Source: an uncultured Methanosarcinales archaeon
GTDB taxonomy: Archaea; Nanobdellota; Nanobdellia; Woesearchaeales; JAGVZT01
Direction: 5' to 3'
Length of the DNA: 24,039 nucleotides
Assembly: GCA_964419615.1 (NCBI GenBank)
Contig: CAYQPU010000025.1
Span: 1-24,039, forward strand
Below, one piece after another: positions 5,391 through 24,034 of this stretch. A program made the translations under genes and the position numbers. Every line of letters starts with the position of its first letter. Positions within the stretch are counted from its first letter, which is position 1. The notes under the pieces were generated by a model. That model was not told the DNA's origin, did no database searches, and saw nothing but the letters and a program-made list of their open reading frames with translations.

Positions 5391-5414
5391 GCAGTGCCTA
5401 CTCCCATATATTAG

Positions 5415-6629: not shown

Positions 6630-6652
6630 ATAAATTTAATTTGTTTGGTTTA

Positions 6653-6756: not shown

Positions 6757-6763
6757 AGGTGAT
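6757..6763 (+). promoter_or_regulatory. Shine-Dalgarno AGGTGAT for ahcY
   Basis: Directly precedes in-frame ATG 6767. Confidence 0.7.
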
Positions 6764-6766
6764 ATT

Positions 6767-8029: not shown

Positions 8030-8052
8030 TTTTTTATTTATTTTTTATTTTT
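8030..8052 (+). terminator. T-rich archaeal-type terminator after ahcY
   Basis: ttttttatttattttttattttt immediately after the TAG. Confidence 0.55.
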
Positions 8053-8057
8053 AGAAT

Positions 8058-9335
8058 TTAAAGTCCCAATGACTCAACAATCAACTCAGAATTAAATTCT
8101 TTTAGATCTTTATATTCCTGGCCTGTTCCAATGAACATGATTGGTTTTTCGGTTACAAAAGAAACAGAGATTGCTGCACCACCTTTTTCATCTATGTCTG
8201 CTTTTGAGAGAATTATTCCATCTATTCCAATTTCTTGGTTAAATGTTTTTGCTTGTTCTATGCAATCATTGCCAGTTATACTTTCTCCCACAAATATTGT
8301 TAGGTCTGGTTTTGTTACTCGCTTTAGTTTTTTGATTTCTTCCATTAAGTTTTTGTTTGAGTGTAATCTGCCTGCTGTGTCTATTAATACGATATCTATG
8401 TCATGTGATTGTGCATGTTTTATTGCATCATATGCAACTGCTGCTGCATCTGCACCATAGTCATGCTTGATTAGTTTGATCCCAAGTTTATCTGTGTGCT
8501 CCTCAATTTGCTGGATTGCTGCTGCTCTGAATGTGTCTGATGCTGCAACAACTATTTTTTTGTTGTTTTTTTTTAGCATGCTTGCAAGTTTGGCTATGGT
8601 TGTTGTTTTTCCAGAACCATTGATTCCAACAAAACAAATAATGAGTGGCTTTTTATTTTCTGAAAGCTTTACAATGTTTATTTGATCAGCTTCAAACAAA
8701 TTTTCTATAGATTTTTTTAGTGATTCTTGAATTTTGTTTTCAACATTTTTTCTTGGTATTTGCTGGCCAATTAGATCTTCTGATAAATCTTGTTTGATTT
8801 TGTCAACAACTTCAAGTGCAACATTATTCTCTAGAAGAATTAGTTCAAGTTCATCAAATATATCTTCAAATTGTTTTTCAGTTATTTTGTATGTTATACT
8901 TTGTTTAAGTTTTGAGAATATTGATTTTTTCTCTGGAACCTTTGTTGGTTCTTCTGATTTTTTTATTTCCTTTTTAACTGGTTCAGATATTATTTCATCA
9001 ATTTCTTTTATTAATTTGGGTTCTTCTTTTTTTACTTCTTTTATTGGCTGAGCTTGTTTTTCCTTGATTGTTTCAACAGAAGTAAGTTTTTTCTTCTTTG
9101 TTTTTCCTACTACTTTTTCTGTTTCTGATTTTTCTTCTATAGCTTTTTCTTCTTCTTTTTTTTTAATAGGTATTTCTTCTGATTTTTTTTCCTTTTTAGG
9201 CTCTTTTTTCGTATCTTCAATTAGTTCTTTTTCTAATTTTTCTTCTGGAATTTCTTCTGGTATTGATTCTTCTTCAACTTTCTTAGAAGCTTTAGAAATT
9301 GCAGTTTTTAGTTTGTTTTTTAAGAATTTAAACAT
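8058..9335 (-). CDS. ftsY: Signal recognition particle receptor FtsY
   Basis: Charged N-domain followed by the NG domain: GINGSGKTTTIAKLA, DTFRAAAIQQ, DTAGR, SKAD.DEKGGAAIS, GTGQEY.DL. Confidence 0.96.
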   Translation of the reverse strand: MFKFLKNKLKTAISKASKKVEEESIPEEIPEEKLEKELIEDTKKEPKKEKKSEEIPIKKKEEEKAIEEKSETEKVVGKTKKKKLTSVETIKEKQAQPIKEVKKEEPKLIKEIDEIISEPVKKEIKKSEEPTKVPEKKSIFSKLKQSITYKITEKQFEDIFDELELILLENNVALEVVDKIKQDLSEDLIGQQIPRKNVENKIQESLKKSIENLFEADQINIVKLSENKKPLIICFVGINGSGKTTTIAKLASMLKKNNKKIVVAASDTFRAAAIQQIEEHTDKLGIKLIKHDYGADAAAVAYDAIKHAQSHDIDIVLIDTAGRLHSNKNLMEEIKKLKRVTKPDLTIFVGESITGNDCIEQAKTFNQEIGIDGIILSKADIDEKGGAAISVSFVTEKPIMFIGTGQEYKDLKEFNSELIVESLGL

Positions 9336-9735
9336 TTTGACTATCTACTTGACCTTGTAGTTCTGTTGCAATTACCTGCAACTTTGCAGTTAGCTGCTGA
9401 ATTCCAGTAGTCATTTGTTCATGGAATTCTTGTACTTGTACAACTCTTTTATCAAGTAGCTCTTTTGTTTCATTATTTTTCTTTTTTACTATTACATTTG
9501 CACCAACATTAACCATCAATTCATTGCTAGTGGTAAGTTTGGCTCTAGCAAATATGCCTCCACTTATTGGCAATAGGATTTCCTTGTTTTCATCTAACTC
9601 GTCAATAGTTTGCAATGCAGCCTGCAATTCCACTAGCTGCTCTTCCAAAAGTTGGGTTTGCTGTTGCCTTTCTTTTAATTGTTCATTTAGTAATTGGAAT
9701 TCATAATATTTAGTCTGAAGTTCTTCTTGCTCCAT
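9328..9735 (-). CDS. pfdA: Prefoldin alpha subunit
   Basis: Coiled coil-EILLPISGGIFARAKL…MVNVGANVIVKK-coiled coil; conserved archaeal pfdA-ftsY adjacency; GGTGG SD. Confidence 0.9.
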   Translation of the reverse strand: MEQEELQTKYYEFQLLNEQLKERQQQTQLLEEQLVELQAALQTIDELDENKEILLPISGGIFARAKLTTSNELMVNVGANVIVKKKNNETKELLDKRVVQVQEFHEQMTTGIQQLTAKLQVIATELQGQVDSQNV

Positions 9736-9807
9736 ATAACCACCTTATATACCGTAACCTTGTTTTGTTTTTAAAGGTTTGGGAAAACCCTTGTGCTTTT
9801 TAGGAAT

Positions 9808-10641
9808 TTAGATTGAGAGAAAGATTAATGCTGGTATGAGTAATAAAAGGCCAACATACTGGCTAATTTGCAGTCTTTCTTTTAGGAAAACATATCCTAA
9901 GATAAACACAACTGCTGGAAAAGCGTTTATTATTGGAACTGTTAGACTTATTTTCTCCATTAGAGTTGAGACAGCATATGATATTTGCATTATGGTCTCA
10001 AGAAGAGCCATTATTAATACCACTAGAAACAGTTTTTTGTTTAATACCTTGAATGAAGATAGGTGCTTTGGTGCGAGGGTTAATACTACAACTGTTTTAA
10101 ATAGAAAAACTCCAAATGCAAATCCAAAGATTGCTGTTATTGGTTGATAGAGGAAGAATACAAGGGCAAATGTTCCAAGAGGAATCAGGGCTAATAAGAC
10201 TCCTTTGGAAATTTTTATTTTTTCAGATTTTTCAAGTGAAACAAGGAATATACCTATTACTGCAAGAAACACACCTAACCATTGGTATAGTTGCAGCTTT
10301 TCATTGAGAAAAAACATAGCTAACAATAGGGTTGGAAGTGTATACGATGCAGCTATTGCAGATACTAGGGAAACTTTTCCAATTTTAATTGCTCCAAACA
10401 AACCATAGTAAGCAGCAACATGCAATAATCCCATTATTATTATCAAGTAAATGGAATTTAATTCAAAGTTAATCTCTGTGAAAAACAGAAAAGGAATCAA
10501 TAAAATCACACCAAACAGATATTCTAAGAATAACAATTGAAAGGGTTTAAGCTTTTTAAGAACAATTTTGCCAAGAAAATCATGTATCCCCAAAGCAAAC
10601 ATTGCGCAAAATGCAAGTACAATTCCTGTTGATATTGCCAT
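9808..10641 (-). CDS. EamA/DMT family transporter, two repeats (start 10641 or 10644)
   Basis: About 10 hydrophobic helices; duplicated motifs LFFLNEKL…QWLG and YVFLKERL…QYVG; TATA at 10664-10671 ends 23 nt before 10641. Confidence 0.9.
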   Translation of the reverse strand: MAISTGIVLAFCAMFALGIHDFLGKIVLKKLKPFQLLFLEYLFGVILLIPFLFFTEINFELNSIYLIIIMGLLHVAAYYGLFGAIKIGKVSLVSAIAASYTLPTLLLAMFFLNEKLQLYQWLGVFLAVIGIFLVSLEKSEKIKISKGVLLALIPLGTFALVFFLYQPITAIFGFAFGVFLFKTVVVLTLAPKHLSSFKVLNKKLFLVVLIMALLETIMQISYAVSTLMEKISLTVPIINAFPAVVFILGYVFLKERLQISQYVGLLLLIPALIFLSI

Positions 10642-10767
10642 CATCTGAACATATTAATATTAATATATAAACATTTCTGGAATTTTCTACTAATTATGGG
10701 TTGTTCCCACAATAAGCCATATATTCAATCCACTTGCTTATTTTAAGGTTTTTTCACTCTCAACTTA

Positions 10768-10775
10768 TTTATAAG
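10768..10775 (+). promoter_or_regulatory. TATA box (TTTATAAG) heading the 10802-13408 operon
   Basis: Ends 27 nt before ATG 10802. Confidence 0.5.
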
Positions 10776-10801
10776 TTCATTCTATTCCAAATGTTAGTAA
10801 A

Positions 10802-11170
10802 ATGGTGGTCTGTGTATTAGACAAGACCATTGAAGAGTATGAGTTTGGGAATGGTGATCAGATATTAACAGAACTTGCCTTTGCCCAAGAGAATATTGCT
10901 TTGCTCAAAGGTGGTTTGAAAGAAAACAGAAGAGAACAAAATTACTCTTTTAAAGATGGCTTCAGAGTAACAAAAGATAAATTAAGATCACTCAAAAGAG
11001 AAGCTGAGCAAGAAGGCGTAAGATTGAGCTTTTTGCAGGTCTTACAGTACATATGTTATCAATGGCTCGAGGATAGAGACATAGAGTATACAAAGGGATT
11101 GGTTGTTTTATCAAAAAAAAAGACTGGTGATTTTGATTGGATGTACGAAGGTAGTTTGTACACCAAATAG
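10802..11170 (+). CDS. Hypothetical protein (122 aa)
   Basis: ORF following a TATA box, first in a co-oriented cluster; no family recognised. Confidence 0.7.
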   Translation: MVVCVLDKTIEEYEFGNGDQILTELAFAQENIALLKGGLKENRREQNYSFKDGFRVTKDKLRSLKREAEQEGVRLSFLQVLQYICYQWLEDRDIEYTKGLVVLSKKKTGDFDWMYEGSLYTK

Positions 11171-11188
11171 ATGATAGGAGGAATAAAC

Positions 11189-11239
11189 ATGGATGAATTA
11201 ATACATACTTTAATGTCAGGATTATTCTGTGATGGGTGA
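11189..11239 (+). CDS. Putative 16-aa micro-ORF MDELIHTLMSGLFCDG
   Basis: AGGAGGA at 11176-11182 lies 6 nt before the ATG; the TGA overlaps the SD/GTG of the next gene. Confidence 0.4.
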   Translation: MDELIHTLMSGLFCDG

Positions 11240-11244
11240 ATGAA

Positions 11245-12279
11245 ATGAGTCTAATATTTCATAGTGAAGAGCCAGTTGAGATTTTATACGAAGGAACTGG
11301 AAGTAAACAAAAGCTTATTCCCTATGTTGGTTTGATAACCGAGCCATTACACCAATTAGGAATTGGACTTGCAAGGGTTGATAATGCAGAAGGTCCCTTT
11401 TATGCAGCTATTGACAAGGTAAATCCAGTTCAGTGCTATAGGGCATTTGAGATAATAAAAAATCTAAAGCAAGCTAATAATACAAATCTTTTTGGTGCTT
11501 ATGAAGCTGCAGAGAGTATTCGCAGTTTTAAAGCTGGTTATGTAGATCTACATAGTCTAAGATCAATAGCAATAGATGATATTGAAAGTCTATTCACTAG
11601 TAAACTTCCAAATATGGATAATACAATTCAAAAGCTAGTGGAACTTGATTTGGATTTTGAGGTTGAACCAATAATCAGAGAGGTAGAAGCTGGAAGATTG
11701 GAACTAACACAAACAGTCAATGAAGCTATTAGACATTATGTTGGACTTGATCTTGTTTTAAGAGGACTAAGAGAGTCATTTGCTGATACATATAATTTTA
11801 TTAGAAATGAATCTGGTGCCGATAGAACTGTTGACAGTCTTGTAAATGATTATAATGTCACACTAGGTGCTGTAGGATTTATGATGCTTGCAACAATTGA
11901 TCTTCTTCATAATGAACTAGAAACCATGATGTATGATTTAGAAGAACAGGGTTGTGACAATCAAAATTATATGTATGATAAATTATGGATGGTGGCCAAA
12001 GAAAACATTGCACAAACAACTGATTCATATTTGAGATTCAAAATGGCATTAGTACAGGATATGGATCCAAGAGTCCAATTTGTTTCCTTCCATGATTCTA
12101 TGAGCAATTATGTGATGGGACTTATTAGTCTTAGAACTAATTTTTCAGAGTTAAGAAATTTGACAGGGGATCCAAATTATGAGGACGCTGAAGTGACTGC
12201 TGAGGCAATTGCTAGAACAATAAATGAAGGGTTATATGACCATGCTCAAGGCTATTATAATTTGCTCTCACCTATCTAA
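11245..12279 (+). CDS. Hypothetical mostly alpha-helical protein, paralog A (start ATG 11245 or GTG 11236)
   Basis: GGTGA SD at 11235-11239; aligns with 12302..13408. Confidence 0.8.
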   Translation: MSLIFHSEEPVEILYEGTGSKQKLIPYVGLITEPLHQLGIGLARVDNAEGPFYAAIDKVNPVQCYRAFEIIKNLKQANNTNLFGAYEAAESIRSFKAGYVDLHSLRSIAIDDIESLFTSKLPNMDNTIQKLVELDLDFEVEPIIREVEAGRLELTQTVNEAIRHYVGLDLVLRGLRESFADTYNFIRNESGADRTVDSLVNDYNVTLGAVGFMMLATIDLLHNELETMMYDLEEQGCDNQNYMYDKLWMVAKENIAQTTDSYLRFKMALVQDMDPRVQFVSFHDSMSNYVMGLISLRTNFSELRNLTGDPNYEDAEVTAEAIARTINEGLYDHAQGYYNLLSPI

Positions 12280-12301
12280 AGAACTACGGAGTTGATGAAA
12301 A

Positions 12302-13408
12302 ATGGATGAAGTGCTCTATGCCGGAAGATATATGACTAGGACTGTTAATGGAATTATGACAAATACTGTTGCTAGAGTAGGAATTAAAACTGATTCAAAG
12401 AAATTGCATTTTGAAGTCATTGACACAGATGAAGGTAATATGCTTGCGTATGAAAGCTTTAGTGATATTGATATTATTAATGCAGTTAGAGCTTTTAGGC
12501 TGCTTGAGCAACTTACACTTATTGAGGAAGGTGATATTGAACATTGTTGGCATGCTGCTAATCCTAACTATCCTCCTGAACACCAGGAAAGTGTGGATAT
12601 GATTGTTGGTAAGACAGGTATTGGTACAAGAGAAAGGCAAATTAATGATTGGCTTCCTTTTTTAGATAGTGCGCTTGAATCTTTTGATGAATATGGTCTT
12701 AGTGTTAATATCGAAAGTATTTTTAGAGAGTTAGACTCCCGGCTATTGACTAAGACACATAGAGTTGGTAGAGTAATCTGGGAGCATGCAGATAAGTATT
12801 TTGTTTTCAAAGGTTTATCAGAAGACTATCAAGAAGCACTTGATTTTTATGAGTCAAAACCAAATGGATTAACTCAGCTACTTAATCTTAAAGGATTATG
12901 GGATGCATCTTCTATGGCTATTAGGTACAATGATAAAGCCGAAGAGTTGTTACAAGAAGTAATTGAGCATTTTGAGGAGTCTCTTCCGAAACTCCAGGGT
13001 AAGATCCTATCTGCAACAAGAGAAACAAGAGTTCCCTTGTATGATCAATGGGAATTTGCCATTTATCATGAACATGTTAATCATGCAAGTACAAAGATAG
13101 AGAGAGCAATTGAATTTGGTAAGTTTGATTTGGATCCATACCCAAAAAGAAATGCTGGTGAAAAGTTTATTCATTTTCATAAAAGATTCAAAGATTTCTC
13201 AGAGATTCTCATAAGTCTGGAAGATAGTTGCATTAAACTTTCAAAGATTCCTGAGATTGAAGAACAAGATTATAAATCACAAAGCCATGTTCATCTAAGC
13301 AACGCAGAGTTAGTAAGGGGTGAATTAAGATACCTTAACAGATTGGTTGCAGAGAACATGCCAGAAGCCTATAAGTTAGGAAGATATACAGGGATACCAG
13401 TTATTTAA
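12302..13408 (+). CDS. Hypothetical mostly alpha-helical protein, paralog B
   Basis: 368-aa ORF, GGAG SD at 12288-12291; aligns with paralog A; T-tract after the stop. Confidence 0.8.
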   Translation: MDEVLYAGRYMTRTVNGIMTNTVARVGIKTDSKKLHFEVIDTDEGNMLAYESFSDIDIINAVRAFRLLEQLTLIEEGDIEHCWHAANPNYPPEHQESVDMIVGKTGIGTRERQINDWLPFLDSALESFDEYGLSVNIESIFRELDSRLLTKTHRVGRVIWEHADKYFVFKGLSEDYQEALDFYESKPNGLTQLLNLKGLWDASSMAIRYNDKAEELLQEVIEHFEESLPKLQGKILSATRETRVPLYDQWEFAIYHEHVNHASTKIERAIEFGKFDLDPYPKRNAGEKFIHFHKRFKDFSEILISLEDSCIKLSKIPEIEEQDYKSQSHVHLSNAELVRGELRYLNRLVAENMPEAYKLGRYTGIPVI

Positions 13409-13426
13409 TTACGGGTTTTTTATTTA

Positions 13427-14284
13427 TTACCTAAAAACAATAGAAGCATATCCAACTGCTTGCTTGTAATCACCAGCAATATCTGCAGAAGTATAGTACT
13501 GAAGTAGTTCTCCATTTGATTTGATTAATTTTGTTAGCAGGAGCATAGGAATTACTCCACAGATTGTGGCTCCTGTTTCTTTTACATAATTTGCAAAACT
13601 ATCATGATCTAGGTTAAGGATGTGCTTGATTGCTCCAAGATCAAGTTTGTACATCCTTTTTGGAATATCAGATGAGAATGGAACATATCTATATGCTGAT
13701 CCATAGTGAGTAAAGTCTGAACTTATGATAAAAGTGACTTCTTTTTCGAGATCAATTAGTGTTTCTTGTATATCAAGTGCTAATTTTGATAAATCAATAT
13801 CATCTGATAAACATATTGGAAGAATTCTGATTTTGCTTAAATGCTGTTTGTTTGCATATTGTAAAAATGGAAGTTGCACTTCTATTGAATGTTCTTCCTG
13901 ATGATCTGTTGGATCTAATGTTAATTCTGATTTTTGAGCAAGAGTTTGGCCAAGTTGCTTATCAATGTTGACTAAACCCATTGGAGTTCTCCAGGGATTT
14001 AGACTAATTGATGATTTTCTGCCTCTATGATTTGGTCCAATTAGAATGTAACAATCTGGAAGCTCAGCTTCTGCAATTTCTTTAAATGACCATGCTGCAC
14101 ATGGGCCAGAGTAGGAATAACCTGCATGCGGACAAATAACAGCTTTTACTTGCCCTTCACGTTTTGATAGGGGTAATGTGCTTGGTCCTTTTTCATGCAG
14201 AAATGATGCTTTGATTTGTTCTTTTAGTTTTTGAAAGTCTGCAGGATAAAAAGATCCAGCAACAATTGGTTTTCGAATTGTCAT
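13427..14284 (-). CDS. MEMO1 family protein (AmmeMemoRadiSam system protein B)
   Basis: IRKPIVAGSFYP, PHAGYSYSG, GPNHRG, EHSIEVQLPFLQY, SSDFTHYG, TICG, Y.TSAD…VGYASI. Confidence 0.93.
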   Translation of the reverse strand: MTIRKPIVAGSFYPADFQKLKEQIKASFLHEKGPSTLPLSKREGQVKAVICPHAGYSYSGPCAAWSFKEIAEAELPDCYILIGPNHRGRKSSISLNPWRTPMGLVNIDKQLGQTLAQKSELTLDPTDHQEEHSIEVQLPFLQYANKQHLSKIRILPICLSDDIDLSKLALDIQETLIDLEKEVTFIISSDFTHYGSAYRYVPFSSDIPKRMYKLDLGAIKHILNLDHDSFANYVKETGATICGVIPMLLLTKLIKSNGELLQYYTSADIAGDYKQAVGYASIVFR

Positions 14285-14307
14285 ATGTTCAATATAATTA
14301 TAAATGC

Positions 14308-14315
14308 TTTATAAA
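14308..14315 (-). promoter_or_regulatory. TATA box (TTTATAAA) for the MEMO1 gene
   Basis: Ends 24 nt before ATG 14284; GGCAAAAA BRE-like sequence upstream. Confidence 0.65.
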
Positions 14316-14351
14316 ATTTTTGCCTTCTTAAATCATCTTTTTCCCGTAAAG

Positions 14352-14359
14352 TTTATATA
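14352..14359 (+). promoter_or_regulatory. TATA box (TTTATATA) for 14382..14873
   Basis: Ends 23 nt before ATG 14382; CGTAAAG BRE-like sequence upstream. Confidence 0.65.
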
Positions 14360-14381
14360 TACTTAACCCGTAAAAAAGAAT

Positions 14382-14873
14382 ATGGGGAGACATAAGCAAT
14401 TCAATAAAGAGCTTGGAGATTATCTTAATAAGAGAACAACGGAGAAGGTTTTTAAAATTAAACCCCGGCCTAAGAAAAGAAAGGTTGAAGATCTTGAAGA
14501 GATTGAGTTGGAAAAGGCTGATGAAAAGATTTCTAAAAAAGGGTTTTGGGCAAGATTAAATAACAAAATGTTCGGATCAAAAGCTGTTGTTCAAAGTGAA
14601 CCTGCTCAGATAGAACATGAGGAACCACCAAAAAGAGGTTTTATCAAAAGCATATTGTATGGCTCTCAAAAAGAAAAGCACTTTGAAGAGGTGCATGAAG
14701 AGCCTTTGAAAATCAAAAAAGTTGTTTTGTACAAACCAAAAACTGAGCAAGAAATTCGATTTTTAATCAAGTTGGTTGATTCACTTGTGGTACAATTGGG
14801 CTCCCTTCCAGGAGATAGGTTTAAAAGGACTCCTGAATACAAGATATTTAAGGGTATTAAAGAGCGTTATTAA
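14382..14873 (+). CDS. Hypothetical charged protein with two amphipathic-helix motifs
   Basis: 163-aa ORF with a promoter; ends 1 nt before the next ATG. Confidence 0.75.
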   Translation: MGRHKQFNKELGDYLNKRTTEKVFKIKPRPKKRKVEDLEEIELEKADEKISKKGFWARLNNKMFGSKAVVQSEPAQIEHEEPPKRGFIKSILYGSQKEKHFEEVHEEPLKIKKVVLYKPKTEQEIRFLIKLVDSLVVQLGSLPGDRFKRTPEYKIFKGIKERY

Positions 14874-14874
14874 T

Positions 14875-16449
14875 ATGCAAAGAGGTGTGTACTGGTTTTT
14901 TATTTTCCTTATTTTATTAGCTTTTGCTAATGCATCAACATATGATACATGGGTTTTATCAGGAGAAACAATTAATTTTAATGAACAAGATTTTTTGGTT
15001 TTAACAAGTTCAGATTGGGAGATTGCCAGCATAGAATATGATGATGAGGTAATTATTGCTAGTAATCAAAGTTGCGGTGCAGATGCTTTTTATAGATTGT
15101 GTTATGAGGGTGCAAGGTGGGACCAAGCAAAGGGTTATGGTGAATATGACAGCACAACTTCTGCTAAAACACCTGAATTACATATAACTATTTCCAATCT
15201 AGCTCCAACTGTTACTGTTGCAAGATCAATCACCAAATCAGATTTAATTGTAAATGAAGAAACAGATGTTATTGTTACTATTTCTCATACTGGTGAGAAA
15301 AAGATTGAGAATGTAGTTTATACGGAAATTATTCCAAATGGATTTCAAGTTACAGAAACTGAAGACATTGTTAAGAAAGGTAACATCTTAAAGTTTGAAA
15401 CACCTTATTTGTCTGCTGATAAACAGCTAAGTTACAAAATCAAAACCATAAGACCAATTAATGCCAGCTGGACTTCAAGTCTTAAGTATGATTACCAAGG
15501 TCAAAGTACAACTCAAGAGATTGGTCAGATTTCTGTGAAAACTATTGAAATAACTAATCCACTGCAAGTGAGCACAACTCTTTCAAAAGCAAATATTGAT
15601 CCAGGACATAGTGTTACTTATACTGCCACATTGACTCCAAGCGAAGAAACACAGGTGCATAGCTTTGTTTTTGATATTCCAAAGAATGTTGAGGTCAAGG
15701 ATTATTCTGATGAGATGCAGTTTGAAAATAATAATATTGAATGGGCCGGAGTTATTGATGAGGTGCAAGTTTTTGAAGTTGATTTGAAGTTTTTATATGC
15801 AGGAAGTTTTGAGCTTAATACTACTGTGGTTAACGAATTTTATAGTGATGTTGAAGAAAAGTATCATAATAAAAGTCAAACAAAATCAAATAAGCTGGTT
15901 GTTGATTTAACCAAAATTTCTGCGAAAGTTGACTTCATGCTTGATAGGAAAAGTATTAAAGTTGGCAACAAATCAAATATTAAGGTACTTATTGAAAACA
16001 AAGATTCTAAGACTGTGTTATTTGATGTGAATTATTATATTAAGACAGGTTTATTTGGAAACTCACAAGGCACTGTTGAGGCACTTGCTCCAGGTGAAAT
16101 TGAACAGGTTTATTTTAAGGAGTTTTATGCTCCATCTTTAGAGGAAGATAGTAAGTTTATAATGAATGTTACTGGAAGTTATCGTACACAATTTTATCAG
16201 GAGTTTGATTTTGATGCTTCTGATACATTGAGTATTGGTAAAGATCCTGATTTTGTTGCTGAACAAGAACCTAGCCAGGTAGTGCAGCAAGAACAAAAAA
16301 CAGAAGATACTAGTGAAGAAGAATCAGAAGAAGAAAAACTTGTTGATGATGAGTCAATCGAAGATTCAAATGAAGGGGTAGATGAAAACCCGAAACAAAA
16401 AAAGAGTTTCTTTTCAAAGATTATTGATTTTTTTAGGAATTTGTTCTAA
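14875..16449 (+). CDS. Secreted/surface protein with tandem Ig-like (DUF11/BatD-like) domains, acidic linker and amphipathic C-terminus (start moved from 14776 to 14875)
   Basis: Signal peptide MQRGVYWFFIFLILLAFANA; alternating beta-strand motifs VTVARSIT…TDVIVTISH…EIIPNGF and LQVSTTLS…SVTYTATL; C-terminus KKSFFSKIIDFFRNLF. Confidence 0.8.
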   Translation: MQRGVYWFFIFLILLAFANASTYDTWVLSGETINFNEQDFLVLTSSDWEIASIEYDDEVIIASNQSCGADAFYRLCYEGARWDQAKGYGEYDSTTSAKTPELHITISNLAPTVTVARSITKSDLIVNEETDVIVTISHTGEKKIENVVYTEIIPNGFQVTETEDIVKKGNILKFETPYLSADKQLSYKIKTIRPINASWTSSLKYDYQGQSTTQEIGQISVKTIEITNPLQVSTTLSKANIDPGHSVTYTATLTPSEETQVHSFVFDIPKNVEVKDYSDEMQFENNNIEWAGVIDEVQVFEVDLKFLYAGSFELNTTVVNEFYSDVEEKYHNKSQTKSNKLVVDLTKISAKVDFMLDRKSIKVGNKSNIKVLIENKDSKTVLFDVNYYIKTGLFGNSQGTVEALAPGEIEQVYFKEFYAPSLEEDSKFIMNVTGSYRTQFYQEFDFDASDTLSIGKDPDFVAEQEPSQVVQQEQKTEDTSEEESEEEKLVDDESIEDSNEGVDENPKQKKSFFSKIIDFFRNLF

Positions 16450-17471
16450 ACAAACATTGAACCAAACATTGCTGTTAACACTTTTAATAGTAATAAATAC
16501 ACAAGATGAGATGAAACTACAAATACTGGGATGTACTTTACACCGCTTTTGATATTTCCCCTGTTTATTAAGGAGACAATCATTGATGAAAACAGTGCTA
16601 TCACTCCAAGAGTTATTTTTGAGAATTTAACGAAATCTTCTGGTTGCACTGCGAGCTGTTCAAAGTTAAAGGCGAGGTTTACTGATGCTCTACTAAGTGA
16701 TGGACCCAGTTTTTGAGAAAATCTTAATAGAATAATTAGGAGTTCATGAGAAAGTGCAAAAAGCAGGGGTGCAATAAATATCACAATCATAGCAATGAAT
16801 ATTACATAAGTAGTGTTCGCAGCGACTATTTCTGCCTTAAGAAGCTTGGTTTCTCTTATGTTATCTACGATTTTATCGATTATTGAAGCAAGTTCAGCTC
16901 CACTTCCAAGACCTTCAATAATTAGATTAAGAGACCTTTTGGTCATAGGAGATTCATATTTGTGAGAGAACTCAGTTAATGCTTGTTCAAATGGTTGTCC
17001 AGTTGCAACCCTTTTTGATACTATTTGAATTTCTTTTGCCAAAACACCAAATTCTGGTTTCACTGCTTCCCACAGTGCCCGGTCTAAACCAATTCCTCCT
17101 TTCACGTTTTCAGAGACTAGTGCCAGATAGCCATCCAAAACATCTTCAATTTTCTTGGTTCTGCTAAATATTTTTAAGTCAAGGTAAGAGTAAACTACAA
17201 CAAAGATAATAACTGCAATTGCTAGCATTGCTAAAGCAACAAATAGAAATGTGTATAAGAAAAATTGAATTATGCCTTGATTATCCAATGCTGGATATAT
17301 CAATGAAAAGTAGGCAAACAATGTTAAGATAACACTCAAATAAAATAGTATCCCAAAGTATTTGTAAGGTACCTCAACAATGCCAGCTTTTAGTAAGTAT
17401 CTTCTTAGGTGTGGTCGTATCTTTTGTGGGATGAACGCCTTTCCAAATTCCTTTAAAAAAAGCAATTTCAT
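16446..17471 (-). CDS. Type II secretion F (TadC/ArlJ-like) membrane platform protein
   Basis: TM helices flanking RTKKIEDVL…LVSENVKGGIGLDRAL…EFGVLAKEI…VATGQPFEQAL; ATGA overlap with the upstream gene. Confidence 0.85.
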   Translation of the reverse strand: MKLLFLKEFGKAFIPQKIRPHLRRYLLKAGIVEVPYKYFGILFYLSVILTLFAYFSLIYPALDNQGIIQFFLYTFLFVALAMLAIAVIIFVVVYSYLDLKIFSRTKKIEDVLDGYLALVSENVKGGIGLDRALWEAVKPEFGVLAKEIQIVSKRVATGQPFEQALTEFSHKYESPMTKRSLNLIIEGLGSGAELASIIDKIVDNIRETKLLKAEIVAANTTYVIFIAMIVIFIAPLLFALSHELLIILLRFSQKLGPSLSRASVNLAFNFEQLAVQPEDFVKFSKITLGVIALFSSMIVSLINRGNIKSGVKYIPVFVVSSHLVYLLLLKVLTAMFGSMFV

Positions 17472-18286
17472 ATGTCCACCGCTGGCCTAATTGATTTTAT
17501 TACTGAAATAAATACTAATTGAATAAGAGCAATGAAACATGTCACAATAATTAAAGTTGTGAAGTCAAGGACTATATTGACCATACTTGAAAATATTATG
17601 AACATTGAGATTCCAAGTGAAGGCAGTACACACGCTGCTATTAGATAAAATAAAACTATTGAGTTCAACTTTTTTGAATATGCCTTGATTTCAATTTGCT
17701 GCCGTTTTGTTATTTCATCCAGTAATTTTTTTAGTGAACTACTTATATCAACACCAGTTTTAAGTGAGTTTAAAATCTGATGAAGAACCATTTGGAATTC
17801 ATGATTGGCATTATAGTTAATCGCATCTTCTATTGCTTGTTCAATAGGTTTTCCAAGGTTGATGTCATCAACAATTTCTTTAAAATATGATCCTCCCACA
17901 CCATAACTATTTGAAGCTTTAATCATTGCATTAAATAAGGGCTCACCTGAATCAATTTTCACAAGCAGATATCTAGTTGCAAATAGTATGTTTCGTTTGA
18001 TGTCTTTATCCCTTCGTCTTATGTATGCCTTTGGTGTGTTTGAAAAGAAAACATAAAGCATAATCAAGGTGACAGGAATCGTAAACATCAATAGTTTTAA
18101 TGATTCACTATATTTTAATAATATAAAAAATAACATTCCATTAAGTGCTATTGATATTTGAAGTGAAAGCATAAAATTACGCTTCAGAAATTTTTTTGGA
18201 TCTATGTCCATGTGAGCAGTTCTTAGCTCATTTTTTAACTTGTGACTAGGTCTTGTTAAGGCCTCATATATATTTAATCCTTTCAT
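17468..18286 (-). CDS. Type II secretion F (TadB/TadC-like) membrane platform protein (start moved from 18322 to 18286)
   Basis: RRRDKDIKRNILFATRYL…SGEPLFNAM…FKEIVDDINLGKPIEQAI; ATG 18286 lies 1 nt after the ATPase stop. Confidence 0.85.
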   Translation of the reverse strand: MKGLNIYEALTRPSHKLKNELRTAHMDIDPKKFLKRNFMLSLQISIALNGMLFFILLKYSESLKLLMFTIPVTLIMLYVFFSNTPKAYIRRRDKDIKRNILFATRYLLVKIDSGEPLFNAMIKASNSYGVGGSYFKEIVDDINLGKPIEQAIEDAINYNANHEFQMVLHQILNSLKTGVDISSSLKKLLDEITKRQQIEIKAYSKKLNSIVLFYLIAACVLPSLGISMFIIFSSMVNIVLDFTTLIIVTCFIALIQLVFISVIKSIRPAVDI

Positions 18287-18287
18287 C

Positions 18288-19868
18288 TTAAATATCCAAA
18301 CGGTTGTTGTAGTACATTGCAAAGAATAGACCTAGATCGTTAATGTTCGTCATATCTTCCCGTATCAAATGCTTGATTAATGCTTTTTTATGTTCCAAAT
18401 CTTTTTTTACATCTTCCCAAGTCATCCCAGTAAATAAATTTAGTGTTTCCATAAGTTTTGTCCATTCGGTCACTTTCTTAAATCTGTTTTCTTTTAGATC
18501 CAGCTGGTAGAGCACATTGGCATCTCCACTCTCAACTATTTCTGCAAGTTGGAATGTTCTTCTAACTCCTGTTCTTCTGTTTCTTGATTGGACAAGTATA
18601 ATTGAGAGAGCAGGCATTAACATTTTGGGTACATCAATAGGTGGATTTGTTAATCTTAGTATTGCTTCACGTGCATCATTTGCATGAAATGTTCCATAAA
18701 CACTATGTCCCGTGTGCATTGCTTCAAATAACACTTCTGCTTCTCTTTTTCTTCTGATTTCTCCAACCACTATACGATCCGGTCTCATTCTAAGACTGTT
18801 TACAACCAAGTCAAGCATAGTTACCTCGCCTTTACCTTCAGGGTTTGCTAGTCTTGTTTCAAGAGGTACCCAATGAATATTTTTTGGAAGAATGATTTCT
18901 CTAGTGTCTTCAACACTGATTATTCTTTGATTTGGAGGAAAGAAGTTGCAAACAACATTCAATGTAGAAGTTTTACCAGTTGCTGTTCCACCAGCTATTA
19001 ACATGGATAGTTCGTTCTGTACTGCCAGCCAAATTATTGCTGCTGCATTTAATGAAATTGTTTTGTTTTTTACAAAATCTACAATTGTCCAAGGTTTTTC
19101 AGAGAACTTTCTGATTGTTATAGTATTACCTGCTGCAGATATTGGCCGAAGGGTTGCATTTACTCTATCACCTGTTGCAAGATGTGCATCCAATAAAGGT
19201 TTTAATAGTGTGAGTTCTTTTTGTACGTCCCTACCAATCATTGTTGCAAAATGTCGAATTCTTTCTTCAGATGGAATATTAACATTTGTTCTAAGCCAAC
19301 CAAATTGCTTATGATAAACCCATACAGGTTCTTTTGAGCTGTTTACAACTATCTCTTCAAGTCTTGAGTCCTTTAAGAGAATTTCAATATTACCTAATCC
19401 AACATTTTCTCTCATAACATAGGAAATCAAAAGGTTTTTGTTCTTATTGTCAATTTTAGGAAAGTATTTTTCAATTAGAATTATTATTTCTTTTTTGAAT
19501 CTGTTTTGGATAGAGTGTTGAGCATCTTCTTCTGAAACTGGAATTGTACCGGCTGCTACTTTGGTTACAAATTCCTCTTTTAATTTGTCGAGGATTATAT
19601 TTGTGTGCTGACTGATATTTAGAATGGAAATTCTGTAAGTTGGAACAAAATCTATTTCAGATTGAAAAATATCAACATGCACAATGAGTTTATCAACATT
19701 TATTTGATAACTATCTAGTTGCCTGCTGGTTTGTTCCTTGGCTGTTTGCCGGGTTTTCTCTTGGCCTGAATCCTTGCCTGACTTCTGGTCTGACGCCTGA
19801 TTTACCTGAGGATTTGACTGTTGGTTTACCGGCGAATTCGTCTTTGGATTTGTGTGTTGTTTTATCAT
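18288..19868 (-). CDS. Type II/IV secretion system ATPase (CpaF/TadA/ArlI-like)
   Basis: Walker A GGTATGKTS, Asp box ISVEDTRE, Walker B MRPDRIVVGEIR, His box MHTGHSVYGTFHA. Confidence 0.92.
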   Translation of the reverse strand: MIKQHTNPKTNSPVNQQSNPQVNQASDQKSGKDSGQEKTRQTAKEQTSRQLDSYQINVDKLIVHVDIFQSEIDFVPTYRISILNISQHTNIILDKLKEEFVTKVAAGTIPVSEEDAQHSIQNRFKKEIIILIEKYFPKIDNKNKNLLISYVMRENVGLGNIEILLKDSRLEEIVVNSSKEPVWVYHKQFGWLRTNVNIPSEERIRHFATMIGRDVQKELTLLKPLLDAHLATGDRVNATLRPISAAGNTITIRKFSEKPWTIVDFVKNKTISLNAAAIIWLAVQNELSMLIAGGTATGKTSTLNVVCNFFPPNQRIISVEDTREIILPKNIHWVPLETRLANPEGKGEVTMLDLVVNSLRMRPDRIVVGEIRRKREAEVLFEAMHTGHSVYGTFHANDAREAILRLTNPPIDVPKMLMPALSIILVQSRNRRTGVRRTFQLAEIVESGDANVLYQLDLKENRFKKVTEWTKLMETLNLFTGMTWEDVKKDLEHKKALIKHLIREDMTNINDLGLFFAMYYNNRLDI

Positions 19869-21864
19869 GTTCTATCTTATGTTTTAGTTCAATGTTGGAC
19901 GGATCTAGTCTGTGTGCTCTTTTGTAGAGCGCTTCAGCCTCAATTGTTTTCCCTCCCTTTTCATAATCATAAGCTTTTGTTAATAATGTATTTACAAGTG
20001 CTTGGGATCTCATATCCTTAGGTTGATTATTTTTTTGCATGTATTGCTCATACTTTGATCTGACATAATTCCATATCTTCATGTCTTCAGGGTATTTTGA
20101 TGAGAATGTATGTAAGGCTGATTTTATTTCAAATAAGATTCTATTTATTTCTTTGGACTCTATTGTCTTATCAAGTTTCTTTACTTGCCCTAAGACTTCT
20201 ACTTCATGATAAAGCTTACTGATTGCATCAGATATTTTTGATTTTTCTTGCACAAGTGAAAGTGGGAGATGACCATATAACTCCCTGATTGCCTTGTACT
20301 TTGATTCTAATACATTAAATTCACTATTATCAATGTGTTCTCTTACATCCACAAGGAGTCTTATTAACTGTTTATATCTTTGTTCAGTGTATTCATCAAA
20401 ATCTTTTAGCATTGGTTCTTCTGATTTTAATAGCAAATCACGATATAGTTTTAGAATGTTGACTCGAAGATTGGTTTGTTCTTGCATAAATCCAGCAGGC
20501 AGAGTTGAGTAATGGTGCAATATTTCATAATAAACTCCATCTGCCATGTCTATGTTACCCTCTTTTACATAATCATTTGACATAGTCAATAATTTGTTGA
20601 TTCTCTTTGTTTTTACTTCTAGATCAGAAAGTGCATTTTTGTTCTTGTGTATTACAAGAAGTTTGTTTAAATGAATTAATTTTTCTTCAATATCAATTCC
20701 TTTTCTACCAATTTGTTTTGGAAGTTGGTTATAGATTTGTCTTGCTTGTTCATATGTTCTTGAAGCTTGTTCAAGATTTCCTTTGCCAATAAACTCATTT
20801 GTTTTACGCATTAACTTAACTATAGTTATTCTGTTTTGTGTTACAATTTTAATTTCCTGCTCTTCTTTCACAGCTATTAGTAGAGGAATAAGATTAAAGA
20901 TTAGTTTTTCAGTTTCAGCTCTTTGTTTAGAATAACCAATAGGAAGCAGATTATATGTCATTCTAATAACTTCGTAAGTTTCAAATGCTTCTTTTACTTG
21001 CTTGTGCTGGAGTTGCAGATGAAGTTTTTTTATTAACTCAGTTAATTCTTTTATTTTTAGATTTGTGTATTTTAATAATAATGATTCTCTTAGCTTAACA
21101 AGTTTTTCATAACTATCTAATATGCTTCCTTGAATCTTTGCTTTTTGAATTGCATATGTGTTTGGTAAAGCTGAATAAAGTGTCTCAATATCAGTGTATA
21201 ACTCTTCTGCATGTTTAATATCTCTTCTTAGAAGAACAAAATTTAGTTTTTGAAGTTTAAACCTTATTTGTTTGGATATTTCTTTAGAAGTTTTAGCATG
21301 TTCATTTTTTATATGCAGTGACATATCCTTGTTTAACTTAGTGAGCTTGACATCCATTTCTCTTTTAACATCTTGTAAATGAAATGGCAGTTCTTCGTGT
21401 CTAACTTTGATTAATTGGTATATTTTATTAGCTTCTTCAAATTTTCCCTGCTCAAGATAGGAATATGCTTTTTGAAGCATAACATTCATATTTTTTGAAA
21501 GTTCAGGTAGGATATCCGGAATGTCAAATTCTTCTTTTTTCTCAACAGGTTTATCATCCAAATGCGCTGCAGGATATTTTGGTTTCTTGGGCAGCTTTAT
21601 CTGTGGAAGTGCTTGTTTTGGTTTTGTTGTTTTTGTTTGTGAAGTAATAAGGTAAGGTGTTGTAAGTTTGTATTTAATTCCTAAAACTCCCTCTTCCTCA
21701 AGATAATTTCCCCAAGCTTCCACTGTCACTGTAGGAACTTTTAATATTTCAGCAGCCTCACTAAAAGATATCTCTTTTTTCTCATTAACTAGTTTTACCA
21801 GAGAGTCTACATCTGTTTTAATTAGTACATTTTTATCTTCTGGTTTAGAAACTGATTTTTCCAT
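19711..21864 (-). CDS. Winged-helix + six ~74-aa helical repeats + TPR protein, first gene of the pilus/secretion operon
   Basis: wH-like residues 15-73; repeats from residue 125 to 558; TPR-like LLTKAYDYEKGGKTIEAEALYKRAHRLDPSN; GAGAGTGA SD-like site; TATA at ~21920-21928. Confidence 0.85.
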   Translation of the reverse strand: MEKSVSKPEDKNVLIKTDVDSLVKLVNEKKEISFSEAAEILKVPTVTVEAWGNYLEEEGVLGIKYKLTTPYLITSQTKTTKPKQALPQIKLPKKPKYPAAHLDDKPVEKKEEFDIPDILPELSKNMNVMLQKAYSYLEQGKFEEANKIYQLIKVRHEELPFHLQDVKREMDVKLTKLNKDMSLHIKNEHAKTSKEISKQIRFKLQKLNFVLLRRDIKHAEELYTDIETLYSALPNTYAIQKAKIQGSILDSYEKLVKLRESLLLKYTNLKIKELTELIKKLHLQLQHKQVKEAFETYEVIRMTYNLLPIGYSKQRAETEKLIFNLIPLLIAVKEEQEIKIVTQNRITIVKLMRKTNEFIGKGNLEQASRTYEQARQIYNQLPKQIGRKGIDIEEKLIHLNKLLVIHKNKNALSDLEVKTKRINKLLTMSNDYVKEGNIDMADGVYYEILHHYSTLPAGFMQEQTNLRVNILKLYRDLLLKSEEPMLKDFDEYTEQRYKQLIRLLVDVREHIDNSEFNVLESKYKAIRELYGHLPLSLVQEKSKISDAISKLYHEVEVLGQVKKLDKTIESKEINRILFEIKSALHTFSSKYPEDMKIWNYVRSKYEQYMQKNNQPKDMRSQALVNTLLTKAYDYEKGGKTIEAEALYKRAHRLDPSNIELKHKIEHDKTTHKSKDEFAGKPTVKSSGKSGVRPEVRQGFRPRENPANSQGTNQQATR
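20191..21492 (-). repeat. Protein-level tandem repeat, 6 units, consensus L..A..Y…G….A…Y..I…Y..LP
   Basis: The LP dipeptides are spaced 74,74,74,74,78 aa; Y25 is present in all six units and A21 in five. Confidence 0.85.
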
Positions 21865-22042: not shown

Positions 22043-22363
22043 ATGGCAAAAGATAATAACTTGTATGATTTAGATGGAGTTGCATACTCTGACAGAGAGT
22101 TTAAAGCTAGAAAGGAATATGAACTGGAATTTCATGAAAAAGAGTCACTCAAAGAATTAAAAAAGTGCATTGATAATAGAAAGTATAAGACTGCAAGACA
22201 GATTTCTGAGCATCTTGAATATCTTGAAGATTTAATGGAGAAATTAAAGAGAATTATCAGCTTAGAAGAAAGAGGAGGACTAGTTAATCTTTCTTTAAAA
22301 AGAGAGTATGGACAAATTAGAGAGCTTTATAATAAGCTTTCTTTGCTTTATAATAAATTTTAA
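22043..22363 (+). CDS. Hypothetical helical protein (106 aa)
   Basis: ORF with an upstream TATA and a T-rich tract after the stop. Confidence 0.7.
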   Translation: MAKDNNLYDLDGVAYSDREFKARKEYELEFHEKESLKELKKCIDNRKYKTARQISEHLEYLEDLMEKLKRIISLEERGGLVNLSLKREYGQIRELYNKLSLLYNKF

Positions 22364-22470: not shown

Positions 22471-23163
22471 TCAAGCTTTATTGGATTTGGGAGTTGGTAC
22501 TTGAACCTTTTTTATTCCAAGTTTTGGAGGTTCACTTTTTTTTGGCATTCCTTTTGTTACTTTGGATTTTGCCAAATCACTTTTTTTTGGTATTCTTTTT
22601 GTTACCCGGGGTTTAGGTGGAACCCTTTTTTGCAAAGGTTTACTAGGTTTTCTGTTTGGTTTTCTATCTGGAATTAAGTATTTTCTTTTGTTTTTGTCAA
22701 GATCAACAAAATAATCTGCTTCTTTTTTTATTTTGGATGATGCTGTTTTTCCAAATGCCAAAACTTCAGTCCTACATCCAAGTGATTTTAAATGATGTAG
22801 TAGATCTGAGAAATCACCATCTCCGCTAACTAAAACAGCAGTGTCTATTTTAGATGCGATTCTCATCATGTCCATTGCTATACCTACATCCCAATCTCCT
22901 TTTTTTGCTCCTCCAAAAAATATCTGGAGTTCTTTTGCTTTTACTTCAAAACCAATATTGGTTAGTGCATCAAAGAAATTTGATTCATCTTTTACGTCAG
23001 CTTTTATTACATATGCAATTGCTCTAATGAGTTTTCTTCCATCAACACTTTCATTTAATATCGCTTTAAAATTAACTTTTTTCTTATACAAATTTTTTGC
23101 AGAGTAATACATGTTCTGCACATCTATAAAAACACCAACTCTTTGTTCTTTATGTCTTGTCAT
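22471..23163 (-). CDS. NYN domain protein (LabA/DUF88 family, PIN-like) with a K/P-rich tail
   Basis: VFIDVQNMY, KKGDWDVGIAMD, LVSGDGDFSDL…G..TEVLAF; GAGGT SD in the 3' end of the upstream gene. Confidence 0.92.
   Translation of the reverse strand: MTRHKEQRVGVFIDVQNMYYSAKNLYKKKVNFKAILNESVDGRKLIRAIAYVIKADVKDESNFFDALTNIGFEVKAKELQIFFGGAKKGDWDVGIAMDMMRIASKIDTAVLVSGDGDFSDLLHHLKSLGCRTEVLAFGKTASSKIKKEADYFVDLDKNKRKYLIPDRKPNRKPSKPLQKRVPPKPRVTKRIPKKSDLAKSKVTKGMPKKSEPPKLGIKKVQVPTPKSNKA
22532..22605. repeat. Two 29-nt direct repeats (22532-22560, 22577-22605) encoding VTK(R/G)(I/M)PKKS
   Basis: 27/29 identical, 45-nt period. Confidence 0.85.
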
Positions 23164-23167: not shown

Positions 23168-24034
23168 CTACCTCATATTTAATATATATAAACCAATAAG
23201 CATTAGTGAAATTGCACATACTTTGCTTATTATTGCTTGTTTTGTTAGTTCTTCTTTTAATATTTTTGGGAAAAATTTTGTGAGGATAACTGCTAAGACA
23301 AATACAAATAAACCCTGGAATCCACTCAACACTGAGACAAGTGATGCCACTCCTAATTTGAGAGCATACATTGTGAAGCATAGTGCTATTATGTGTAATA
23401 GTCCATTAGCTAAGAGCAGATTTTTTATTGGTTTTTTTAATGCTTTTTGAAAATCTTTTCTGGTTTCTTTGAGTGATAGGAAACTTAGTCCAATAAAGGA
23501 ACTTATTACAACACCAATTATGAATGAAGACCAGTAGTCAGCAACTTCATAAATATGTTTCATGATAACAATATTTATTCCCCAAAAAAATACAGCTAAT
23601 AGCATTAACCAAAATCCTTTGGAGACTGTTAAAAGATGTTTTACTTTTTTAACTGAGACTAAAATCCCTCCTGTTAGCATTAGGAAAAATGCAATATATT
23701 GCATGTAATTAAGAGTCTGATTTAGAAATATCATTGAGAGTACTAAAACGAACAGGCTTTGCAATGGAAGTAAAGGGATTAATCTTGATGCTTCTTCTAT
23801 TTCAAACGCTTTAACATATGGTACAAATGCAATCAGACCTAGAAAACTAGCTAAAGATATGAGTAATAACTGATTGAGTGTGGGAAATGAAAAGTTTGTA
23901 AAAGGTACTAATAAGAGTACCACAAACCAGATTATTGCTTTGAATACTATTAAGGTGTAGTTTTTAAGGTATTTATCTAAAATGGGCCCTGTCCAGAGTC
24001 TTCTGGACAGAATTAACTTAATGGCTTTAGCCAT
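23168..24034 (-). CDS. EamA/DMT family transporter; N-terminus atypical, possibly 5'-disrupted
   Basis: EASRLIPL…FLNQTL…QYIAFFLML.GGILVS; second repeat LGVASLVSVL…FVFVLAVIL…KILKE. The first 17 residues are not hydrophobic. Confidence 0.75.
   Translation of the reverse strand: MAKAIKLILSRRLWTGPILDKYLKNYTLIVFKAIIWFVVLLLVPFTNFSFPTLNQLLLISLASFLGLIAFVPYVKAFEIEEASRLIPLLPLQSLFVLVLSMIFLNQTLNYMQYIAFFLMLTGGILVSVKKVKHLLTVSKGFWLMLLAVFFWGINIVIMKHIYEVADYWSSFIIGVVISSFIGLSFLSLKETRKDFQKALKKPIKNLLLANGLLHIIALCFTMYALKLGVASLVSVLSGFQGLFVFVLAVILTKFFPKILKEELTKQAIISKVCAISLMLIGLYILNMR

Follow-up and report, generated by a model that had tools for sequence, protein, structure and literature searches.

A probable phylum-wide winged-helix partner of an archaeal type IV filament machine, here carrying a spectrin-like rod

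The stretch of DNA analysed in this study, hereafter the window, comprises 24,039 nucleotides (positions 1 to 24,039 of contig CAYQPU010000025.1, GenBank assembly GCA_964419615.1) from an archaeon that was deposited as an uncultured Methanosarcinales and is placed in the Woesearchaeales by GTDB. It is AT-rich (~30-36% G+C) and corresponds to contig C25 of a 1.48 Mb genome of 64 contigs that is 99% complete. Among sequencing runs, the locus was listed only for metagenomic DNA of marine and seawater samples (two studies), and no RNA run was listed. A gene on the reverse strand codes for the protein P0001, which consists of an acidic winged helix, a disordered linker, a series of helical repeats and a TPR motif. 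This gene is the first of a tight operon that continues with genes for a secretion ATPase (P0002), a TadB-like and a TadC-like protein, and in the downstream part neighbouring genes are 1 nt apart or overlap at an ATGA (Table 1). A first-pass annotation, made from the sequence alone, had placed the gene at the head of a pilus ATPase operon, and this was borne out by a T2SSE match and two T2SSF genes directly downstream.

Table 1. Features of the winged-helix-repeat gene and of the operon that it heads, in coordinates of the window.
Feature	Coordinates	Strand	Length or residues	Basis and remarks
P0001, whole open reading frame: winged helix, six 74-aa three-helix-bundle repeats, TPR, disordered tail	19711..21864	(-)	717 aa	
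Acidic winged-helix domain, the conserved, family-defining module	21643..21816	(-)	aa 17-74	AlphaFold2, structural alignment, conservation, charge
K/P-rich disordered linker	21517..21633	(-)	aa 78-116	pLDDT <50, sequence
Six tandem ~74-aa repeats, antiparallel three-helix bundles	20167..21510	(-)	aa ~119-566	AlphaFold2, hidden Markov model, structural alignment
Two extra helices between last repeat and TPR	20029..20157	(-)	aa 570-612	AlphaFold2
C-terminal TPR motif and capping helix	19852..20013	(-)	aa 618-671	Pfam TPR_14; helices 618-636, 640-653, 658-671 (AlphaFold2)
Low-complexity disordered tail, overlapping the start of the ATPase reading frame	19714..19848	(-)	aa 673-717	pLDDT <50
FlaI/TadA(CpaF)-like secretion ATPase P0002	18288..19868	(-)	526 aa	PF00437, 125 bits
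TadB-like platform protein (T2SSF)	17468..18322	(-)		PF00482, 43.7 bits; probable ATG 18286
TadC-like platform protein (T2SSF)	16446..17471	(-)		PF00482, 53.2 bits; ATGA overlap with preceding gene

We compared P0002 to the NCBIfam models, where it scored 270 bits against FlaI and 202 bits against the TadA family, in both cases below the equivalog cut-offs. A VirB11-type ATPase accompanied by two separate platform genes characterises the archaeal filament type named "system 1", and the same combination is found in the Epd pilus of Methanococcus maripaludis and in bacterial Tad systems (platform proteins TadB/TadC, EpdJ/K-like). According to a 2026 census (PMC13705601), system 1 occurs in DPANN archaea, with the ATPase and platform genes adjacent and the pilin genes scattered. 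No pilin gene was identified in the window operon, and a prepilin peptidase (Peptidase_A24, 61 bits) is encoded on contig C15 of the same genome. A second operon was found on contig C8 (L065, C8:12000-28000; 5097-15719), where a 549-residue protein with a P/Q-rich disordered region, a winged helix and a C-terminal transmembrane segment is followed by an ATPase and two T2SSF genes. Four to five genes coding for proteins with class III-signal-like N-termini, including a VWA protein of 792 residues, are located upstream of it.

The end of P0001 had been set at position 19894 by the first-pass annotation, which corresponds to residue 657 within the last TPR helix; the reading frame continues through the disordered tail to a stop codon at 19711-19713. 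As a result, the tail overlaps the ATPase reading frame, which opens with an ATG at 19868, by 158 nt (window 19711-19868). The only other in-frame start in this part of the ATPase frame is a GTG at 19682 (codon 63), which falls behind the point from which homologous ATPases can be aligned (~aa 43), and either a real overlap or the use of a non-canonical start is therefore probable. In the nearest relative (L001) the two genes overlap by 116 nt, whereas in most relatives they are separated by a small gap. Within the overlap, the ATPase frame begins with an N-terminus rich in S, T, N and Q, and the ATG at 19868 is a putative start only.

A structure of the whole protein was modelled with AlphaFold2 from an alignment of 101 sequences, and the model had a mean predicted local distance difference test score (pLDDT) of 86.9 and a predicted TM-score (pTM) of 0.57. 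The N-terminal winged helix proposed earlier was recovered with an H-E-H-H-E-E topology (helix 18-29, strand 31-33, helices 34-41 and 45-58, strands 61-66 and 69-74) at a pLDDT of ~95, and the K/P linker behind it, which had also been noted earlier, was disordered in the model. The domain could be superposed on solved winged helices from SelB, Z-alpha, MarR, ArsR and ESCRT-II with Z-scores of 10-11 and root mean square deviations (rmsd) of 1.2-2.0 Å over 60-63 residues. It has a mean column identity of 59% among 44 family members, far above that of the repeats, and nine invariant positions (T3, D6, L8, E35, W37, L41, E42, E43 and Y51). Helix 3, the usual recognition helix of such domains, has a net charge of -3 to -5 in each of the 44 members, and the mean charge of the domain is -3.25. 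DNA binding by a domain with an acidic helix 3 and an overall acidic character is unlikely. No helix-turn-helix (HTH) family reached its Pfam cut-off in P0001 or in the 44 members, the HTH_DeoR score being 15.3 as compared to a cut-off of 21 bits, and a profile search of the PDB with the winged helix returned only HTH matches below threshold.

The segment that follows the linker is built from six units. LP dipeptides are located at residues 159, 233, 307, 381, 455 and 533, with spacings of 74, 74, 74, 74 and 78 residues, exactly as read in the first-pass annotation. Although pairwise identity among the units is only 14-24%, a chance resemblance was excluded by a leave-one-out analysis, in which hidden Markov models made from five units scored the sixth at 22-37 bits, as compared to a maximum of 10 bits for 500 shuffled sequences. 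In the AlphaFold2 model of this region, helices of 16 residues alternate with helices of ~49 residues, and the same helix pattern was obtained when three units (aa 189-411, 223 residues) were modelled separately (pLDDT 90.9). Each unit forms an antiparallel bundle of three helices, in which helix B is followed by the LP(xGF) loop and helix C extends without a break into helix A of the following unit.

We searched for known folds that resemble these bundles. Single units could be superposed with rmsd values of 1.6-2.5 Å over 72-81 residues on Not5/CNOT3, GAT and BAG domains, the glycyl-tRNA synthetase alpha subunit, and the MIT domains of an archaeal Vps4 and of katanin. The full 223 residues modelled for three units were covered only by spectrin/plakin triples (5j1i_B, 1u4q_B and 3edv_B), with TM-scores (TMq) of 0.37-0.40, rmsd values of 9-13 Å and Z-scores of 9.4-10.2; Z-scores of ~10 for the repeat bundles are within the range that the alignment tool flags as common for helical proteins. 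No match at E<=1e-3 was obtained with Foldseek against the PDB, either for the whole model or for the three-unit model. Spectrin and plakin rods, as well as EzrA-type bacterial spectrin-like rods, have the same arrangement of tandem bundles with a continuous helix from C to A, whereas the spectrin repeat (PF00435) has a period of ~106 rather than 74 residues, and no Pfam spectrin match was found here. As modelled, the rod shares a spectrin-like architecture, and we do not claim homology with spectrin.

The first-pass annotation had likened the units to MIT three-helix bundles, which holds in part. The archaeal Vps4 MIT domain (2w2u_B) matches a unit with a Z-score of 9.6 and an rmsd of 1.9 Å over 72 of 74 residues, and two units align to the tandem MIT domains of calpain-7 (8uc6) with Z-scores of 9.6-10. 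However, Not5, GAT, BAG and designed three-helix bundles fit equally well, there is no Pfam match to PF04212 at E<=1, and MIT domains are discrete whereas the units of P0001 are joined by continuous helices, so that the likeness is that of a generic bundle in a spectrin-like chain. A TPR solenoid was also considered for the repeats and rejected. In sequence, the A-B hairpin of each unit resembles a TPR, and matches to TPR_6 and TPR_19 below threshold were obtained at residues 124-153, but the unit differs from TPR proteins by a third, long helix and by a period of 74 rather than 34 residues, the TPR matches within the repeats are all below the Pfam cut-offs, and TPR proteins compared to the models gave TMq values of at most 0.22 with rmsd values above 20 Å. 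The earlier statement that the period is not that of TPR thus stands, and the repeats did not model as an ordinary TPR solenoid. A single true TPR, likewise predicted, follows the repeats: TPR_14 at residues 625-660 is the only Pfam motif in P0001 above its cut-off (29.5 as compared to 23.5 bits).

No transmembrane segment, signal peptide or class III signal was identified in P0001. The maximal Kyte-Doolittle hydropathy over 19 residues is 0.83, while the membrane proteins encoded at the locus reach 2.9-3.3, in agreement with the first-pass annotation. Searches with P0001 against Pfam and NCBIfam gave only weak TPR-, PPR- and HTH-type matches, and no model of the known cytoplasmic accessory proteins of type IV filaments (TadZ/CpaE, ArlH, ArlX, ArlCDE, PilM, GspL) was matched. 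A sequence-profile search of the PDB with the whole P0001 family returned designed helical bundles only, and the ESM Atlas returned only TPR-like clusters (0.82-0.83), below the score at which such matches can be trusted.

To place the protein in its family, 1.84 billion representative proteins were searched with a profile, which yielded 157 relatives of P0001 at E<1e-30. In a scan of species-representative genomes, 56 related loci were identified, all in metagenome-assembled genomes of Woesearchaeota/Nanoarchaeota or in records mislabelled as other taxa. The gene order winged-helix-repeat protein, ATPase, TadB, TadC is kept in every locus with enough downstream DNA (47/47), and the gap between the first and second gene is mostly between -25 and +140 nt, with the genes often overlapping. 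These results agree with the earlier description of P0001 as a cytoplasmic helical-repeat protein of non-TPR type that is tied to a pilus ATPase. The period of 74 residues is conserved in the family, but the number of repeats varies among members of at least 550 residues, with five repeats in 51, six in 94 and seven in 15 proteins. The five-repeat subfamily has a P/K-rich disordered tail and lacks both the sixth unit and the TPR; a degenerate sixth repeat hidden in these tails was considered and dismissed on account of their composition and disorder. The suggestion that six repeats are matched to a hexameric ATPase is thus not supported by the family at large.

The winged helix is also found outside of proteins of the P0001 type. 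We examined 30 additional loci in which the domain is present in open reading frames of other sizes, and in 19 out of 20 further loci with other architectures the winged-helix gene is located directly upstream of ATPase, TadB and TadC. The architectures include the winged helix alone (145-250 aa), a winged-helix gene with the repeats encoded by a separate gene behind it (L069, L070, L077), a winged helix joined to a K/E-rich coiled coil of ~320 residues (380-395 aa overall; L067, L068, L071, L078, L079), polytopic membrane proteins with 4-12 transmembrane segments and a C-terminal winged helix (L073, L080-L083), and a winged helix with a transmembrane anchor (L085). In three loci, small winged-helix genes are located just after TadC (L093-L095). 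In genome G018, which belongs to genus g91, the domain lies at the C-terminus of a protein of 250 residues.

In yet other loci (L086-L090), one open reading frame encodes the winged helix joined to the ATPase N-terminus. Such fusions are represented by at least 10 distinct protein clusters of 593-621 residues, from several sources and on contigs of up to 84 kb, and are therefore not artefacts of assembly. The match to PF23989 in the fused ATPases was considered as a possible winged helix and turned out to be the C-terminal PilB3_C domain. Another candidate, P0161 (187 aa on a contig of 774 nt), which combines a winged helix with the C-terminal Zn-finger region of a bacterial PilB-type T2SSE protein, was disregarded as a probable assembly chimera.

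A tree of 74 ATPases was compared to the architecture of the partner protein. All 46 ATPases with a repeat-type partner group in one clade (local support 0.68), all 14 with a membrane-type partner in another (support 1.0), and all 14 with coiled-coil, short or downstream types in a third (support 0.955). Fusions of the winged helix to the ATPase occur in two of these three clades. In an even sample of the phylum, the winged-helix profile matched 88 of 151 genomes. Close relatives of P0002 (best E <=1e-120) occurred in nearly the same genomes, and for 28 out of the 30 families given by name their presence pattern was identical to that of the winged helix; the remaining two, f23 and f24, have distant ATPases only. 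Judging from these sequence comparisons, the winged helix most likely represents an unnamed domain family that is dedicated to this clade of motor ATPases.

The strict adjacency of the genes, the match between architecture and ATPase clade, and the fusions to ATPases and to membrane anchors argue that the winged helix works on or with the motor ATPase. Our preferred explanation, to which we assign a probability of roughly 0.6, is that P0001 is a soluble cytoplasmic accessory protein of an Epd/Tad-like filament machine of the split-platform type ("system 1"), in which the winged helix docks on the ATPase and is not a regulator that binds DNA. It is more likely that the protein meets the motor with this domain than that the domain serves as its output to DNA. 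The acidic winged helix would dock on the ATPase, or would supply in trans the N-terminal domain that is part of the ATPase in the fused forms. From there, the variable remainder of the protein, here the linker of ~40 residues, the rod of six bundles and the TPR tip, may reach or organise another partner, may space or tether the motor relative to it, or may form a scaffold underneath the motor, with the TPR tip as the end that would bind a putative peptide ligand.

In bacteria, the cytoplasmic domain of GspL in association with the N1E domain of GspE, as well as BfpC and TcpR, serve as tethers for the ATPases of type IV filament systems. In these systems, the ATPase is recruited by a small dedicated cytoplasmic domain, in many cases carried by a bitopic membrane protein whose gene lies beside that of the motor, and the membrane-anchored forms of the winged helix (P0159, L073, L080-L085) share this layout; such paralogues would act as tethers in a similar manner. 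The folds differ, being actin-like or ferredoxin-like in the bacterial proteins as compared to a winged helix here, and P0001, being soluble, has a rod in the place of an anchor, with a putative rather than an established contact to the ATPase. It has been proposed that archaeal filament ATPases contact accessory proteins through extensions at their N- and C-termini (PMC13705601). A more far-reaching version, which we regard as rather unlikely, is that the acidic winged helix acts as a motor adaptor specific to DPANN archaea that replaces anchoring of the GspL/PilM/ArlX type, and that copies of the winged helix-rod-TPR protein form a cytoplasmic cage or ruler under the hexamer that links the motor to, for example, an apparatus for host cell contact or cytoplasmic bridges. 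The rod would then represent a new archaeal class of spectrin-like cytoskeletal proteins.

Several observations weigh against docking of P0001 on the motor. The fold of the domain is that of classical DNA-binding winged-helix regulators, with ArsR and MarR among the top structural matches, and the wing contains two moderately conserved lysines. In genus g91, which belongs to another order, the winged-helix gene and the ATPase-TadB-TadC genes are on different contigs (G018 and G142; L074 and L092), and this is the only exception to adjacency that was seen. Support for the repeat-type clade is moderate (0.68), and the loci of this type were collected with the repeat protein as the query. With pTM values of 0.57-0.64, the models are an uncertain guide to how the rod is shaped as a whole. 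Finally, adjacency and fusion are signs of functional linkage and not of mechanism; that the winged helix binds the ATPase is what we infer from them.

The position of a helical protein next to these genes is not new in itself. In cluster-2 DPANN archaea, two conserved loci have been described that encode "coiled-coil proteins" together with CpaF and TadC (Hamm et al., 2024, Nat Commun; PMC11291902). These proteins were likened to nucleoporin and to the sigma-1 viral attachment protein, were suggested to function in cell-cell interactions, and were detected by proteomics in Ca. Nanohaloarchaeum antarcticus (PMC11291902). The neighbourhood (a helical protein, a CpaF-like ATPase and TadC) and the lineages (Woesearchaeota, Pacearchaeota, Nanoarchaeota) are the same as those described here, there are two loci per genome as on contigs C25 and C8, and the description fits the architecture of 380-395 residues with a winged helix and a coiled coil. 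We liken P0001 to NAR1_03220/NAR1_01690 by position and lineage, not by sequence. In contrast to our results, no winged helix, 74-residue repeat or ATPase fusion was reported in the main text and text supplements of that study (PMC11291902).

Cytoplasmic accessory proteins of archaeal filament loci have furthermore been listed in two surveys (Makarova et al., 2016, PMC4858521; PMC13705601), and neither mentions a winged-helix, TPR, HTH or helical-repeat accessory. The known accessories (TadZ/CpaE, ArlH, ArlX, ArlCDE, Zn-ribbon proteins and arCOG07564) are unrelated to P0001 in sequence. The claim of the first-pass annotation that no such accessory subunit had been described therefore needs to be narrowed: a helical protein beside CpaF and TadC had been published, and the winged helix and the 74-residue repeat had not been attributed to it. 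In the literature examined, the gene position is known, whereas neither the winged-helix module and the range of its architectures, nor its fusion to ATPases, nor the 74-residue three-helix repeat is described.

Other functions for P0001 were weighed against the same data. As the first gene of the operon it occupies a common position for a transcription regulator, in which the winged helix would bind the operon promoter while the repeats and TPR would sense a ligand or peptide, as in RNPP or MalT proteins, and thereby autoregulate the pilus. The best structural matches to the winged helix include repressors of the ArsR/SmtB, MarR and IclR families, sub-threshold Pfam matches to HTH_DeoR (29 of the 44 members) and HTH_24 were obtained, and NprR and RapI are among the weak Foldseek matches. 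We nevertheless consider such a regulator unlikely, given a net charge of -3 to -5 on helix 3 in 44 of 44 members, a net acidic domain, no HTH family at the Pfam cut-off, TM-scores of at most 0.22 with rmsd values above 20 Å for RNPP/TPR proteins, and the occurrence of the same domain at the C-termini of proteins with 4-12 transmembrane segments, in proteins with a C-terminal membrane anchor and in direct fusion with the ATPase N-terminus. The charge of helix 3 and the fusions to membrane proteins and ATPases also speak against the coupling to DNA that was part of the first-pass annotation. According to that proposal, P0001 is a scaffold whose six repeats couple the hexameric ATPase to DNA or to a partner of the winged helix, in DNA uptake or transfer or in cell-cycle-linked positioning. 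In hexameric translocases such as FtsK, a winged helix reads the DNA, the ATPase scored 202 bits, below the cut-off, against a TadA family model for a "conjugal transfer-associated ATPase", and the window operon has no pilin gene. The winged helix is acidic, however, the repeats number five, six or seven with true five-repeat forms, and an ordinary pilus function is available in view of the pilin-like genes and VWA protein on contig C8 and the prepilin peptidase in the genome, which makes this scaffold very doubtful.

A different role is implied by the study of Hamm et al., in which coiled-coil proteins were reported next to CpaF and TadC throughout cluster-2 DPANN, Woesearchaeota among them, and were seen by proteomics in Ca. 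Nanohaloarchaeum antarcticus (PMC11291902): P0001 might be exported or displayed at the surface to touch the host cell. An elongated rod is compatible with a fibre, but P0001 has neither a signal peptide, a class III signal nor a transmembrane segment, the conserved winged helix is fused to the N-terminus of a cytoplasmic ATPase in some lineages, and no sigma-1-like match was found in the fold searches, and we regard surface display as most improbable. It is quite improbable, too, that P0001 is a general cytoskeletal or scaffold protein that acts in, for example, cell shape or division and is merely co-transcribed with the pilus core. The spectrin-like architecture of the rod would suit such a protein, and unrelated cytoplasmic genes, such as those of the FtsZ family, have been observed within type IV pilus loci (Makarova et al., 2016; PMC4858521), but adjacency across the phylum, the match between architecture and ATPase clade and the repeated fusion to the ATPase are hard to explain by co-transcription alone.

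The surroundings of the operon were also inspected. Convergent with the end of the TadC-like gene, a reading frame at window 14776-16449 (+) codes for a protein of 557 residues with an N-terminal hydrophobic, signal-like segment, weak matches to Ig-like domains and DUF11, and an acidic C-terminal tail. Two adjacent reading frames at 11236-12279 and 12302-13408 (+), of 347 and 368 residues, are without Pfam matches. On the other side of the locus, a coiled-coil-like reading frame of 106 residues at 22043-22363 (+) is divergent from the winged-helix-repeat gene, and further upstream are genes for an NYN-domain protein, a predicted RNase (22471-23163, (-)), and an EamA transporter (23168-24034, (-)). 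Among the ATPase homologues in other genomes, those of G062 (C27:56494-59481) and G061 (C46) are encoded by reading frames of 1008-1037 residues, in which the match is split into two parts (query 49-322 and 317-523) ~1.5 kb apart. Such a split is suggestive of an intein-like insertion within the ATPase domain.

DPANN archaea rely on contacts with host cells, which type IV filaments are strongly suspected to establish. The filament loci of these archaea are scattered and their accessory parts have remained unidentified (PMC13705601). The window probably encodes a type IV filament machine with a previously undescribed, phylum-wide winged-helix partner, which here carries a spectrin-like rod; the 74-residue spectrin-like repeat is an addition to the known types of helical repeats. 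A domain that tracks the motor ATPase across the phylum and is repeatedly fused to it provides a concrete and cheap hypothesis, namely that the winged helix binds the motor. It also offers a handle for pull-down experiments, for structural work and for the reading of the cytoplasmic face of the machine by cryo-electron tomography. By the same reasoning, the published "coiled-coil proteins" of DPANN archaea would be reinterpreted as probable cytoplasmic partners of the motor rather than as attachment fibres.

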